A DNA stretch of 18,404 nt. It comes from a virus (Duplodnaviria; Heunggongvirae; Uroviricota; Caudoviricetes). The translations under genes were made by a program, and so were the position numbers. The notes below the pieces were generated by a model that ran no database searches, was not told the origin of the DNA, and saw only the letters and a list, made by a program, of their open reading frames with translations. Positions within the stretch are counted from its first letter, which is position 1. Every line of letters begins with the position of its first letter. Positions 540 to 7,121 of this stretch are shown in pieces. The stretch is taken from the IMG/VR virus record IMGVR_UViG_3300029713_000154; one strand, written 5' to 3'.

Positions 540-1667
540 ATGATTAAGAAAATAAACGTAAGAAAAGATCAGCTGGCATTACTCTCCAGAAATGGCGATT
601 ACTACAAAGTGCTGCATGCAGGCGAGCATATTTTACCCTGGTTAAATACGCCGGAAGTGTTGCTGATTACTCTGGATGGCAGCGAAGTTCCCGACGTGCT
701 GGCGGATTATTTGCGCCGCTTTCAGCCTGATTGGGTGGAAAGATATTGCCTGGTGGCAGACATGTCGGAAACTGAAGCCGGGGCGTTGTATATGGACGGT
801 ATTTTGCTTGAGATCCTGCCGCCATCAACGCGCCGTTTATACTGGCGTGTAGAGGATGATTTGACGCTGGTGCGGATGAACACGCAGCAAGTCCAGGTAC
901 AAACGGAGGTGATGAATGCGGTATTGCAACCACGGCGCAAAGGGGCAGTTAAAGGCCGCGATGCAATACTAACGGTGCAAGTTCCGGCCTGGCACGTAGG
1001 CGTGCTGAAAATCGATGGTGAAACGCAGGCGCTGTTACCGCCGGGGCTGACCGCATACTGGAAAATAAATCATCTGGTTGAGGCTGAAGTTGTCGACACC
1101 CGCTTGCAGGTACTGGAAGTCAGCGGGCAAGAAATCTTAACGAAAGATAAGGTCAATCTGCGGATTAATCTCGCCGCTAACTGGCGCTACAGCGACGTGT
1201 TGCTGGCATTTAGTCAGTTAACGAAGCCGATTGATCATTTGTATCGGGAATTACAATTTGCCCTGCGTGAAGCGGTAGGTACGCGTACGCTGGATGAACT
1301 GCTGGAAGATAAACAGGTCATTGATGACGTTGTCAGCGAACAGGTGAAATCGCGCATGTTGCCATTTGGTATGGAGATTGCCTCATTAGGGGTGAAAGAT
1401 ATCGTCCTGCCTGGTGATATGAAAAATATCCTCGCGCAGCTGGTTGAGGCAGAGAAATCTGCGCAGGCGAATGTGATTCGCCGACGTGAAGAAACGGCAG
1501 CGACGCGCTCGTTACTGAACACCGCCAAAGTCATGGAGAACAATCCGGTAGCGTTGCGTTTAAAAGAGCTGGAAACGCTGGAGAGAGTGGCTGAGCGGAT
1601 CGATAACATCTCTGTATTTGGCGGTCTGGATCAGGTTCTGCATGGGTTGGTTAATATCAAAGGGTGA
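540..1667 (+). CDS. SPFH/band-7 (slipin-like) domain protein without an obvious transmembrane segment
   Basis: 375-aa ORF with an AAGGAA Shine-Dalgarno-like sequence upstream of ATG 540. The C-terminal half (LTKDKVNLRINLAANWRY...TRTLDELLEDK...FGMEIASLGVKDIVLPGDMKNILAQLVEAEKSAQANVIRRREETAATRSL) has the SPFH core followed by the usual Ala/Glu-rich helix. The N-terminal ~150 aa are unassigned and contain no hydrophobic stretch long enough for a TM helix. Confidence 0.8.
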   Translation: MIKKINVRKDQLALLSRNGDYYKVLHAGEHILPWLNTPEVLLITLDGSEVPDVLADYLRRFQPDWVERYCLVADMSETEAGALYMDGILLEILPPSTRRLYWRVEDDLTLVRMNTQQVQVQTEVMNAVLQPRRKGAVKGRDAILTVQVPAWHVGVLKIDGETQALLPPGLTAYWKINHLVEAEVVDTRLQVLEVSGQEILTKDKVNLRINLAANWRYSDVLLAFSQLTKPIDHLYRELQFALREAVGTRTLDELLEDKQVIDDVVSEQVKSRMLPFGMEIASLGVKDIVLPGDMKNILAQLVEAEKSAQANVIRRREETAATRSLLNTAKVMENNPVALRLKELETLERVAERIDNISVFGGLDQVLHGLVNIKG

Positions 1668-2464
1668 GTAACATGCCATTAAATGGAGTCAGTGCTGCGA
1701 TGCGCGAAAGGGTATCGCAGCAGTTAAAAGAAATTGAACGGCGGTATGATGTGAAAGTATTGTACGCCTGTGAATCAGGGAGTCGCGGTTGGGGATTTGC
1801 CTCGCCCGACAGCGACTACGATGTACGGTTTTTGTATGTTCACCCGCTGGAATGGTATCTGCGAGTAGAGTCACCGCGCGATGTTATCGAGCTGCCCATC
1901 GATGACGAGTTAGATGTTTCCGGTTGGGAGTGGCGTAAGGCGCTGGGATTATTGAAAGGCGCGAACCCGACGCTGATAGAATGGCTGGATTCTCCGGTGG
2001 TCTATCAACAAGATGAAGAAACGATAACGGCGCTTAAGGCAATGGTCCCAACGTGGTTTTCTCCGCTGCGTGCGCGCTGGCATTACTATTCGATGGCGCA
2101 GAAAAACTTCCGCGGATATTTGCAGGGCGATGAAGTTCGACTGAAAAAATACTTTTACGTGCTGCGCCCGCTGCTGGCCGTTCGTTGGGTTGAAGCGGGA
2201 AAAGGTGTACCGCCAATGCGTTTTTCCGAATTGCTGGCGGGAAGTGAGTTGGATGCGGCATTACGCGCAGAAATAGATGAATTGCTGGAGCGTAAACAGC
2301 GTGCGGGTGAAGCGGAATATGGACTGCGCCGTCCTTTGTTACATGCGTTTATTCGTGCGGAACTGGCGCGCGGGGAAATTCCTCCGCTGTTACCAGACAG
2401 CCGGGAAGGGGACGTTAAAGAACTGGATAGTTTACTGTACCAGACGGTAATGCGCCGGGCGTGA
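1664..2464 (+). CDS. pol-beta superfamily nucleotidyltransferase (COG3541/PF10127-like predicted NTase)
   Basis: Signature ESGSRGWGFASPDSDYDVRF (G-S ... D-x-D) near the N-terminus, followed by a helical C-terminal region. GTG 1664 overlaps the SPFH stop (GTGA). ATG 1673, preceded by GGTGAG, is an equally plausible start. Either way the gene is coupled to the upstream one. Confidence 0.8.
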   Translation: MSNMPLNGVSAAMRERVSQQLKEIERRYDVKVLYACESGSRGWGFASPDSDYDVRFLYVHPLEWYLRVESPRDVIELPIDDELDVSGWEWRKALGLLKGANPTLIEWLDSPVVYQQDEETITALKAMVPTWFSPLRARWHYYSMAQKNFRGYLQGDEVRLKKYFYVLRPLLAVRWVEAGKGVPPMRFSELLAGSELDAALRAEIDELLERKQRAGEAEYGLRRPLLHAFIRAELARGEIPPLLPDSREGDVKELDSLLYQTVMRRA

Positions 2465-2481
2465 AGCCCGGCGTTATTTTA
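2453..2481 (+). terminator. rho-independent terminator of the SPFH-NTase operon, shared with the convergent island operon
   Basis: CGCCGGGC (2453-2460), loop GTGAA, GCCCGGCG (2466-2473), then TTATTTTA. The NTase stop codon lies in the loop. The stop of the convergent 151-aa gene (2479-2481) lies in the T-tract. Confidence 0.6.
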
Positions 2482-2934
2482 CGGCTGATATTGCCAGCTA
2501 CTGACTAAAGCGTACAAGTGGTTTGGGGAATAGCGCCAACTCTCCTTTAATTGCAGAAATTCGGCACAAAATTCGCTGCAAAACAGGCGTTCACGCTGTT
2601 CTTTATTACCGGTAATAATTCCAAGCGCGCCGCGCCAATCATATTTTTTGCCATCATGTTTATGGAAAAACGCTTCCACGTCCTGAAGGCTGGCCTGGAG
2701 CGGCAGCATATCCCACTTATCCGCTGGCAATGGCATTATCTTTCCGCGTACACCGCGATCGCGCAGTGATGCAGAGTAACAAAGGTAACTCTTTTCACCA
2801 TGCTTAACGGCTAATTCACAGTGGGAATAACTACCGCGCGTGATTTTACGGGTAAGCCAGTCAGCCAGTCGGGCAATACCACGGTGCTCTGTTCGGCCCT
2901 TATAACAAGCGAGCCAGACAGTGGTTTTACTCAT
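2479..2934 (-). CDS. hypothetical protein, possible permuted papain-like/NlpC-P60 hydrolase (YiiX/YaeF, C92-like)
   Basis: 151-aa ORF whose ATG overlaps the chaperone stop (ATGA at 2931-2934). It has a His-containing motif GSYSHCELAV early and a Cys motif RLFCSEFCAEFL late. This His-before-Cys order is what I recall for permuted papain-fold amidases. The family call is tentative. Confidence 0.55.
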   Translation of the reverse strand: MSKTTVWLACYKGRTEHRGIARLADWLTRKITRGSYSHCELAVKHGEKSYLCYSASLRDRGVRGKIMPLPADKWDMLPLQASLQDVEAFFHKHDGKKYDWRGALGIITGNKEQRERLFCSEFCAEFLQLKESWRYSPNHLYALVSSWQYQP

Positions 2935-3545
2935 GCTTGCCAGCCTGTTGAATAATCGTAGTCGAGCACCGCCTGAATATCGTCCAGAGCTTCCACCGCC
3001 GCGATATGGTGCTGGGCATTGGCGAACAGGCGCATATCGTGATCCATTGTTACCGATTCAAACTGGGCGGCGATCTCGTTGGTTAACTCGATCAGACCGT
3101 TATTTTTAGTTTTCCACATTAACCCTGGAGGGATTTTTTTCTCCGCTCCCATTTTTGTGAGTGAGAGCTGTTGGATACGGCTGTTTGTATCACTGTGGAA
3201 GTGATGGTTGTTGATGATGATGTAATCGGTTGTGACGTAATCCCGTTTGGATTTTATTCTTCTTATTATATCCGCTTTTATTTCTGAAATAAATTTAAGC
3301 ATTGAATCTGTATCAACTATCCATTCTCCTTTTTTTAGTTTGTGAAATCTATCTGGTGGTGGCGTAGAGATAAAGGATAAATCTTCACAGTTAATCCAAA
3401 TTGGGATATTAGCTTTCGCATATGTCTGCCATTGCTGATCAGTTATTTCAACTAAATGTTCTACTTTAGGATAGTTGTAGTGTTCTGTATCGATCCAGTC
3501 CAGAACGATAAATGTTTCAGGATCAAAACAAGCATATTTTGTCAT
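2931..3545 (-). CDS. tail fibre assembly chaperone (Tfa/DUF4376-like)
   Basis: 204-aa ORF starting 6 nt downstream of the fibre gene. Central ...HHFHSDTNSRIQQLSL... and C-terminal ...AAVEALDDIQAVLDYDYSTGW resemble fibre-assembly proteins. The position is canonical for P2 G / Mu U. Confidence 0.75.
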   Translation of the reverse strand: MTKYACFDPETFIVLDWIDTEHYNYPKVEHLVEITDQQWQTYAKANIPIWINCEDLSFISTPPPDRFHKLKKGEWIVDTDSMLKFISEIKADIIRRIKSKRDYVTTDYIIINNHHFHSDTNSRIQQLSLTKMGAEKKIPPGLMWKTKNNGLIELTNEIAAQFESVTMDHDMRLFANAQHHIAAVEALDDIQAVLDYDYSTGWQA

Positions 3546-6028: not shown

Positions 6029-7121
6029 TCGTGACGTCTATTGCGGTGCATTCCGCCCACTCATGCGCCTGCAAAATACGTTTTGTAGGCATATTCAGCG
6101 CAACGTCATAGACGCCATCGACCTGTAACACTTTGATTATCTGGTTTGGCACAATGTCCTGCCCCAGATGTTTCTGCCGCTGTTGCGTCCAGAGGCTAAT
6201 CGCTTTACGCGCTGCAGCCAGCGTTGTCTCCTGATCGGCGGTGGTAAACAGCGTTAGCTGCGCACGGATCTCATATGGCACTCGAAGAGCGCATTTCGCA
6301 CTCACTTTGTCGGTCAGCGGACGTTTTTTCTCCTTGCTAACCTCCTGTTCAATTTGCGCGAGCAGTTCTATTCCCGGCAGTCCGTTCAGAGTTAGCGGGT
6401 AGATCTCCACGCAGCCTTCTGGCAATCCCTCGTCCGGCCCCAGTACTGCAACGTCAATAATCGACTGGCTAACAGAAAGCGTATGAAAGCGGTAGGCACC
6501 ATAGCTGCCCGCATTACTAAAGCTTTCTGGTGCCAGTTGGATACGCTGGCGCAATGCGTCATCGCTCTCTTCACCGCAGCCGCCCGTTGACGCAGTCAGG
6601 TTGGTTACGTTGATGTCATAATGACCAATCCTGTCGACCAGTGCGCTAATTTGTGCAGGCTGCCAGCCGTTACCCTGTTCACCTGCTGCGAGGCTGGTGG
6701 CAGGAACGGCGATATGCAAACTCCTGGCCGGAAGCAGAACATCTTCATCGGTGGCGAACATCACGCTATCAGAGGCACTGGCCCGCGTTCCCTGGGGAAT
6801 CAGGATATTGCTGGTATACGCGCTGACGACCGAAAACTGCAACGTCGTTTTTGCCGGCTGCGCAGGCAAACGGTGAACGCCCACCAACTCCCCTAAATAA
6901 TCCAGCATTGGCGCGCGGGAATACGCGACCAGGTTCTGTTTCGCCGCTTCCTGAATGGCGATGCGTACAAGGTTTTCACGATAGGCAAACAGGTCGATGA
7001 GCAACCGCTCAGCCTGTGCCGGATAGAGTTTTTTACCGCTGGCATCTTCGTATTGCGCAATCATCTCACTGGTAATTTGCGCAGGATCGCGGTCAATAAA
7101 ATTGGGTTCGGCTATCGCCAT
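6006..7121 (-). CDS. baseplate wedge protein, gpJ (Baseplate_J) family
   Basis: 371-aa ORF overlapping gpW by 10 nt. The N-terminus MAIAEPNFIDRDPAQITSEMIAQYEDASGKKLYPAQAERLLIDLFAYRE is typical of P2 J / Mu gp47-type proteins. Confidence 0.9.
   Translation of the reverse strand: MAIAEPNFIDRDPAQITSEMIAQYEDASGKKLYPAQAERLLIDLFAYRENLVRIAIQEAAKQNLVAYSRAPMLDYLGELVGVHRLPAQPAKTTLQFSVVSAYTSNILIPQGTRASASDSVMFATDEDVLLPARSLHIAVPATSLAAGEQGNGWQPAQISALVDRIGHYDINVTNLTASTGGCGEESDDALRQRIQLAPESFSNAGSYGAYRFHTLSVSQSIIDVAVLGPDEGLPEGCVEIYPLTLNGLPGIELLAQIEQEVSKEKKRPLTDKVSAKCALRVPYEIRAQLTLFTTADQETTLAAARKAISLWTQQRQKHLGQDIVPNQIIKVLQVDGVYDVALNMPTKRILQAHEWAECTAIDVTIAGVSDG

Follow-up and report, generated by a model that had tools for sequence, protein, structure and literature searches.

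The window, by which we mean the whole 18,404-nucleotide (nt) stretch of the IMG/VR virus record IMGVR_UViG_3300029713_000154, carries near its start a gene for an SPFH/Band-7 protein followed by a gene for a nucleotidyltransferase. Our results indicate that this pair and the region just upstream of it (102-2474) probably form a satellite operon of the Rtc RNA-repair system, that is, an accessory module induced by the regulator RtcR; we give this reading a probability of about 0.75. The window consists of Escherichia coli DNA with 100% identity to D7 and other strains, and the pair lies in a variable site flanked by yjbD and lysC.

The nucleotidyltransferase is RlaP. The protein matches Pfam PF10127 over the whole model (E 4e-96), and the catalytic residues G36 S37, D48, D50 and D81 are kept in at least 23 of 24 aligned RlaP sequences, which confirms the intact GS...DxD signature that an earlier reading of the sequence alone (the sequence-only reading) had pointed out. 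The name RlaP, which abbreviates 'RNA ligase-associating Pol-beta', was given for the position of these genes beside RNA ligases. The protein encoded in the window is 55-62% identical to the RlaP of rtcB operons in Pseudomonas, Dechloromonas and Burkholderia, and a sequence search of the PDB returned no solved relative of it. The Pseudomonas enzyme adds 1-2 nucleoside monophosphates to an RNA 3'-OH and prefers damaged RNA (2025 preprint, PMC12776372); the PfRlaP structure of that preprint was not among the PDB matches. In two papers (PMC6514570, PMC7824862), the 2016 work of Burroughs and Aravind is credited with placing RlaP in several RNA-repair systems beside RNA ligases.

The SPFH gene leads to the same system. 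A first homology search gave near-identical E. coli sequences only; wider relatives were reached by a profile search and by a representative-library search, the latter with 546 clusters (50% identity) at E<1e-30. Full-length homologues are 43-83% identical to the protein, and the non-enteric ones, many of them from rtc operons, 43-60%. To survey gene neighbourhoods we took the best 80 of at least 595 confirmed SPFH hits across species genomes and located Rtc genes by tblastn with E. coli RtcB, RtcA and RtcR and the RlaP of the window. RtcB lies near the SPFH homologue at 44 of the 80 loci, RtcR at 38, RlaP at 23 and RtcA at 20, and 15 loci hold the complete set of rtcR, RtcB, RlaP and RtcA. 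The commonest full order (15 loci) starts with a divergent rtcR and a leader of 450-720 bp and continues with SPFH, RtcB, RlaP and RtcA. The sequence-only reading had asked whether the pairing recurs across genomes and beside prophages: recurrence with rtc genes was found (RtcB 44/80, RlaP 23/80), and a tie to a phage island was not.

The same reading did not recognise the pairing as a described system. Its nucleotidyltransferase is RlaP, and the association of Band-7 proteins, a tRNA-like RNA and RtcB was predicted in 2016; the pairing is thus not new in kind, since a Band-7 protein with RlaP is part of Rtc-type RNA repair. According to bioRxiv 10.1101/312249, Burroughs and Aravind (Nucleic Acids Research, NAR, 2016) predicted Band-7 proteins free of transmembrane (TM) helices, together with a tRNA-like RNA (b7a-tRNA), beside RtcB. 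Moreover, the P. aeruginosa SPFH gene paFlo8 sits within the rtc locus (2026 paper, PMC13086221).

Transcription unit and promoter

The elements of the operon, all on the + strand, are the following.

102-137, +, enhancer-like repeat (upstream activating sequence, UAS) TTATC-N6-GATAA-N4-CGATA-N6-GATAC, ~100 nt upstream of the sigma54 promoter
224-239, +, sigma54-type promoter TGGCACgcttcTCGCA, with -24 GG and -12 GC; predicted transcription start ~250
250-539, +, whole structured 5' leader RNA, 290 nt, with covariation over 8 enteric sequences
269-337, +, 5' domain of the leader: hairpin 272-275/283-286 and long bulged hairpin 289-306/310-331
351-367, +, T-arm hairpin aTGGG-TTCGATT-CCCAc, the sole recognisable remnant of a b7a-tRNA gene
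414-520, +, 3' domain of the leader: hairpin 417-424/432-439 and long hairpin 446-478/485-517
540-1667, +, SPFH/Band-7 gene, 375 amino acids (aa), 'slipin family protein' in RefSeq
1673-2464, +, RlaP gene, start ATG 1673, 263 aa, 'nucleotidyltransferase domain-containing protein' in RefSeq
2452-2474, +, intrinsic terminator, a 9-bp stem, 8 of its pairs G-C, and then TATTTT

The two genes are separated by 5 nt in the window and in Klebsiella, and RlaP has a second possible start, GTG 1664, which overlaps the SPFH gene as GTGA. The SPFH gene lies directly next to RlaP only in the Enterobacterales (Escherichia, Klebsiella, Superficieibacter, Mangrovibacter and Lonsdalea), and across these five genera the 5-nt gap and the terminator shared with RlaP are kept. 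The terminator overlaps the RlaP stop codon and is faced by the convergent genes of a phage tail cluster; it is also kept in those E. coli alleles that have a zeta-toxin-like gene downstream instead. The earlier proposal that the two genes form one unit with one terminator therefore holds, on the short gap and on the single stem-loop and T-run at 2452-2474, while the start that it gave to the unit, 540, was wrong: the enhancer-like motif (102-125), the promoter and the leader all precede that position. RefSeq annotates yjbD, the pair and the tail-cluster genes only.

Both promoter elements suggest RtcR control. The pattern TTATC-N6-GATAA-N4-CGAT occurs once in the window, at 102-125, with 0 matches expected by chance, and in eight rtcR-linked loci of Klebsiella, Mangrovibacter, Pseudomonas, Chitiniphilus and Burkholderia it is found once each, beside the rtcR start codon; the repeat at 102-137 is accordingly proposed as a candidate RtcR binding site. 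The sigma54-type promoter is the sole match in the window (0.08 expected by chance) and is invariant across the enteric alignment. Upstream of the SPFH gene, TGGCAC-N5-T[CG]GC[AT] was found in 32 of 77 homologous loci, 30 of which have a full divergent rtcR. In E. coli, rtcR-rtcBA occupies a separate locus in 4838 of 5426 complete genomes (at least 80% coverage). The C-terminal stretch NDADRLRKYLARFGL, presumed to be the DNA-binding helix of RtcR, is identical in K-12 RtcR and in four cleanly extracted RtcRs linked to SPFH genes. With this promoter, this enhancer motif, a distant rtcR and an identical C-terminal stretch, we infer that control of the operon by RtcR in trans is plausible.

The SPFH protein, the leader RNA and the tRNA-like gene

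The Pfam Band_7 match of the SPFH protein is restricted to aa 147-318 (E 2.8e-26), and for aa 1-146, including its sub-fragments, Pfam yields no family even at E<=10. Kyte-Doolittle means over 19 residues peak at 1.13, too low for a TM helix, and the hydropathy maximum stays below 1.6 in 88 of 98 family members. The match at 147-318 only and the low hydropathy bear out the description, made from the sequence alone, of an atypical SPFH protein with no TM helix, an unassigned N-domain of ~150 aa and a nucleotidyltransferase as partner. An AlphaFold2 (AF2) model from the single sequence was unusable, with a predicted local distance difference test (pLDDT) score of 38; the model built on an alignment of 53 relatives reached a pLDDT of 83.5 and predicts a beta-rich N-terminal module (~1-146), SPFH domains (~147-290) and two long C-terminal helices (292-355). 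The N-terminal module is present twice in homologues of 500-590 aa. The closest sequence and fold matches of the protein are stomatin, HflK/C, prohibitin and QmcA, and in stomatin, HflK/C, prohibitin and flotillin long C-terminal helices form the cage wall. Unlike the membrane SPFH complexes (HflK/C-FtsH, QmcA-YbbJ (NfeD) and YqiK), the pair studied here lacks a membrane anchor and an NfeD or protease partner, and its SPFH protein carries an additional N-terminal module that is soluble and is found in the context of RNA repair. By RefSeq annotation no neighbour of the pair is an NfeD or FtsH protein; the operon partner is RlaP.

The leader was recognised only by comparison with other genomes; it matches no Rfam family (at the gathering threshold, and at E<=10 on 150-600), and ARAGORN finds no RNA gene in the window. 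In the alignment of the eight enteric sequences, 92.5% of the cells of a 62-pair structure are paired, compared with 39-51% when the partners are slid, and 30 pairs show compensatory changes, compared with 3-9; none of 500 shuffles reached the observed values. The leader is 96-97% identical among E. coli alleles, like the SPFH coding sequence, and its divergence is far below that of synonymous sites. Because it diverges by ~3-4% while in these alleles synonymous changes affect 24-51 of the 376 codons of SPFH and 45-51 of the 264 of RlaP, the leader is under selection.

Most non-enteric loci have a tRNA-like gene ~240-300 nt upstream of the SPFH start. ARAGORN detected it in 45 of 77 upstream regions, and a covariance model of 30 b7a-tRNAs (R1) recovered most of the loci that ARAGORN missed, at 55-90 bits; many of these genes have, by ARAGORN, odd anticodon loops and short acceptor stems. 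On the window R1 matches with its T-arm positions 55-69 only (352-366, GGGTTCGATTCCC, 13.4 bits), and the same T-arm-only match occurs at the equivalent place in all enteric loci, where GGTTCGA-TCC is invariant and UGGG/CCCA, CGGG/CCCG and CAGG/CCUG are the covarying forms of the stem. A second model (R2) scores 87.7 bits on the 5' domain in the window and gives 14 weak matches (17-31 bits) in non-enteric loci, on the + strand and all just upstream of a complete b7a-tRNA. The enteric leader thus appears to derive from the leader that carries a b7a-tRNA gene elsewhere, with the tRNA-like gene reduced to its T-arm. The 3' domain was found by a third model (R3) within the Enterobacterales, including Providencia (26.7 bits), and not outside them. 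Its long hairpin ends ~20 nt before the Shine-Dalgarno sequence, and helices 5-7 of the leader contain 16 pairs with compensatory changes. We also considered the enteric leader as a rearranged cloverleaf, in which hairpin 272-286 would be the D-arm, 289-331 a long anticodon arm and 261-265/368-372 the acceptor. Pair counts permit this folding; it was dropped because R2 finds the 5' domain upstream of complete b7a-tRNAs and the domain is therefore a separate element.

The closest known systems are the Band-7/b7a-tRNA/RtcB operons under RtcR, such as the P. aeruginosa rtc locus with PaFlo8 and PaRlaP, with which the pair shares the TM-less SPFH architecture, an SPFH protein 43-60% identical, an RlaP 55-62% identical, the sigma54 promoter type, the enhancer motif and the 5' domain of the leader. 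It differs from them in that the E. coli pair has no RtcB, RtcA or RtcR in cis, the enteric SPFH and RlaP genes are directly adjacent, the tRNA-like gene is cut to the T-arm hairpin and the 3' domain of the leader is clade-specific. The Salmonella rsr-yrlBA-rtcBA operon, which is controlled by RtcR, encodes Ro60 and the tRNA-like Y RNAs YrlA/YrlB (PMC7790460; bioRxiv 10.1101/312249). It follows the same logic, with rtcR and sigma54 and with a scaffold and a tRNA-like RNA in the same operon slot before the repair enzymes, but the scaffold there is a TROVE/Ro60 ring instead of an SPFH protein, whereas the locus studied here has no Y RNA by Rfam and has RlaP.

Several observations on the homologous loci (those of our comparison are numbered with L) concern the tRNA-like gene. 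Some leaders (L011, L013, L020, L039, L050 and L051, ~6430-6750) hold two tandem tRNA-like genes, several of them with 'anticodons' of 2 or 4 nt or a stop anticodon by ARAGORN. In Burkholderiales leaders (L033, L047, L010, L052) a conserved GC-rich stretch, GGTCGAAAGACCACCCGCCGAACG ... GCTGTAACGGCACCC, lies between the b7a-tRNA and the SPFH start; it matches no Rfam family and is possibly a second structured element. At eleven loci (L010, L018, L025, L028, L034, L036, L041, L052, L054, L061 and L063) ~4-16 tRNA genes, mostly with ordinary anticodons, stand directly upstream of b7a-tRNA-SPFH, 1-4 kb before the SPFH gene; RtcB follows in 7 of the 11 and a full-length adjacent rtcR in none, and the arrangement resembles an island that combines spare tRNAs with tRNA repair. 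Finally, the homologues of Nostoc (L072-L075, L081, L083) and other cyanobacteria are ~510 aa long, with the N-terminal module duplicated, no Rtc genes nearby and a tRNA-like gene 0.9-3 kb upstream (R1, 59-76 bits). Because these loci have both components and lack Rtc genes, the SPFH protein and the tRNA-like RNA may be the core unit of the system.

Proposed role in RNA repair

A working model can be drawn from these relationships. Ribotoxins or nucleases induced by DNA damage would cut tRNAs and leave 2',3'-cyclic phosphate ends that activate RtcR, and RtcR, encoded with rtcBA at its separate locus, would then induce the operon in trans along with rtcBA. RlaP would refill the trimmed 3' ends of the RNA by 1-2 nucleotides, after which the ligase RtcB could rebuild a functional tRNA. 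The SPFH protein is predicted to oligomerise, its long C-terminal helices building a ring or cage, and this scaffold may gather the enzymes together with damaged RNA and with the leader or tRNA-like RNA, a part that we liken, by analogy, to the one proposed for Ro60 and Y RNA in the Salmonella operon.

Several points weigh against this reading of the pair as an Rtc satellite. The window contains no RtcB, RtcA or rtcR, so that any link to RtcB and RtcR in E. coli would have to be in trans, and the supply of RtcR in the strain of the window is presumed from the species-wide rtcR count. The Klebsiella-type RtcR is only ~62% identical to that of E. coli, and the region upstream of rtcBA in K-12 matches the enhancer motif only in part, as judged by eye. 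No Rtc gene lies near the SPFH homologue in 29 of the 80 loci surveyed. The leader is doubtful as a tRNA mimic here, because its tRNA-like gene is reduced to the T-arm. From the literature, RlaP leaves a 3'-OH that RtcB cannot ligate directly, a point that the authors of the biochemical work regard as unresolved (PMC12776372), and standard assays, among which ribotoxin stress was not found, showed no phenotype for a deletion of paFlo8 (PMC13086221).

A more speculative extension, which we consider unlikely, is that the SPFH protein forms a soluble vault-like shell that organises broken tRNAs, the leader or tRNA-like RNA, RlaP and RtcB, a compartment akin to the eukaryotic vault. The vault consists of the major vault protein (with beta-repeat domains, an SPFH-like shoulder and a cap helix), the vault RNA and the TROVE protein TEP1, and the analogy was reportedly already drawn by Burroughs and Aravind in 2016. 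When the SPFH protein is compared with the major vault protein, template modelling (TM) scores are low (0.36-0.42 on the query) and weak alignments extend past the SPFH core, but residues 1-147 have no Pfam vault-repeat match and the likeness may be that of the SPFH core alone. If the vault-like reading were true, the minimal two-gene version of E. coli would be a natural system in which to demonstrate a bacterial RNA-repair compartment.

On the reading as an Rtc satellite, two vaguely annotated accessory genes of ~30% of E. coli become a recognisable part of the Rtc RNA-repair response, and the RtcR regulon of many strains, including O104:H4, would be larger than the rtcBA operon of K-12. A soluble SPFH scaffold acting with RNA in RNA repair is a prediction that dates from 2016, and the pair offers a natural two-gene version of it in a tractable organism; the promoter, enhancer motif and leader of this version are defined, and K-12 is an isogenic-like strain that lacks the module.

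The enteric variant, its chromosomal site and rival explanations

We found the SPFH-RlaP pair in 1632 of the 5426 E. coli genomes (~30%), and at least 80% of it is retained in 1624 of these. In three alleles compared, both genes show 4.5-7 synonymous changes for every nonsynonymous one and no stop codons were found; by the usual criteria both genes are under strong purifying selection and functional in E. coli. Between the window and other E. coli alleles (L003, L004, L005), DNA identity is ~92% for RlaP and 95-97% for SPFH, with nearly all differences synonymous. This depth is unusual for one E. coli locus; old allelic lineages, or recombination with other species, may account for it.

Two Klebsiella genomes have the order rluF, yjbD, (panS), rtcR, divergent SPFH-RlaP, lysC and pgi, so that rtcR and the pair occupy the yjbD-lysC interval, which also houses the pair in E. 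coli. A local rtcR is absent from E. coli, and in K-12 the entire module is missing. At the five other enteric loci tblastn detected no ligase within 7 kb. The enteric form is thus a distinct variant of the Band-7/RlaP pairing, with no ligase or regulator in cis, a tRNA-like gene cut to the T-arm and a clade-specific leader, and no description of it was found in the literature searched. A 311-aa open reading frame (ORF) after RlaP in K. oxytoca was considered as a part of the module and rejected as unrelated and species-specific. In the K-12 yjbD-lysC spacer (L002, 3633-3884) a degraded enhancer-like repeat, TTATCTCTTTCGATAA...GATAA, remains upstream of yjbD, and because the motif persists there the K-12 state suggests deletion of the operon and not its insertion elsewhere.

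The adjacent tail cluster has a distribution of its own. It is present in 196 of the 5426 genomes compared with 1632 for the pair; in O104:H4 and strain WAT the gene that comes after the pair encodes a zeta-toxin-like kinase and is convergent with it, and lysC lies beyond; homology between alleles stops just past the terminator; and in Klebsiella the same yjbD-lysC locus has no phage genes. The pair and the tailocin island occupy one variable site independently of each other, and the tie between them that had been drawn from their adjacency was not upheld by the genome counts, by the other neighbour in O104:H4 and WAT or by the Klebsiella site.

The sequence-only reading had likened the pair to a two-gene conflict or stress module. 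One form of this idea is a self-contained anti-phage system, acquired or working with the tailocin island, with the SPFH protein as sensor of infection or envelope stress and the nucleotidyltransferase as effector, for example a toxin that produces a signal or modifies RNA. The locus is indeed accessory, present in ~30% of E. coli, its site also receives the tail cluster or a zeta-toxin-like gene, the RlaP alleles are unusually divergent (~92% DNA identity), and RNA-repair genes count as counter-conflict genes (PMC6514570). However, we judge it improbable: PADLOC (PADLOC-DB 2.0) has no model that matches the SPFH protein or RlaP at E<=0.01, so that the proposed check against defence models came out negative for both; the nucleotidyltransferase is RlaP, a template-independent extender of RNA 3' ends, and not of the cGAS/DncV or MNT type; the SPFH homologues are embedded in rtcR-rtcB-rtcA operons; the promoter is of the sigma54/RtcR type; and neither the tail-cluster counts (196 genomes against 1632) nor the phage-free Klebsiella locus fits a partnership with the island. 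Adjacency to phage DNA is poor evidence for a defence function. The conflict or stress idea holds in the broad sense, because RNA repair counters ribotoxins and the module thus belongs to biological conflict broadly, and fails as a sensor-plus-effector defence system, given the PADLOC result and the homologues in rtcR-rtcB-rtcA operons.

The pair could also be a decaying relic whose local rtcR was lost, whose operon is no longer induced and whose deletion is under way as in K-12. Compared with Klebsiella, rtcR and panS are gone from between yjbD and the operon, the K-12 enhancer survives only in degraded form, and the pair is absent from ~70% of E. coli genomes. Yet the retention of at least 80% of the pair in 1624 of 1632 genomes, the absence of stops and the 4.5-7 to 1 excess of synonymous changes in the compared alleles speak for maintenance, the most divergent allele still has the enhancer motif, the promoter and the leader, and most E. 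coli carry another rtcR with the identical C-terminal stretch that is presumed to bind DNA; decay has accordingly a small probability in our view. Least credible of all is that the SPFH protein is of the conventional membrane-microdomain or protease-modulating type (HflK/C, QmcA, YqiK) and the nucleotidyltransferase merely an unrelated neighbour. Stomatin, HflK/C, prohibitin and QmcA are its top sequence and fold matches, but the hydrophobic segment is absent (19-residue maximum 1.13), a soluble beta-rich module of 146 aa stands where the anchor would be, no gene annotated NfeD or FtsH is nearby, and the 5-nt spacing and the terminator common with RlaP are kept in five enteric genera.

The remaining genes at the site follow its other occupants. 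The zeta-toxin-like gene (L003 and L005, 7961-8887, - strand) encodes a 308-aa P-loop kinase of the Zeta_toxin/AAA_33 type (Pfam E 1e-40) and fills the slot equal to window position ~2480, where the tail cluster sits here; at the other SPFH homologue loci it has no counterpart. The kinase may act together with the repair pair, perhaps on RNA ends, or may be a toxin unrelated to it. In the window, a 151-aa ORF that matches no family and a gene for a DUF4376 protein (2479-3545, - strand) lie between the pair and the tail-fibre gene; both accompany the tail cluster, also in L004, and not the pair.

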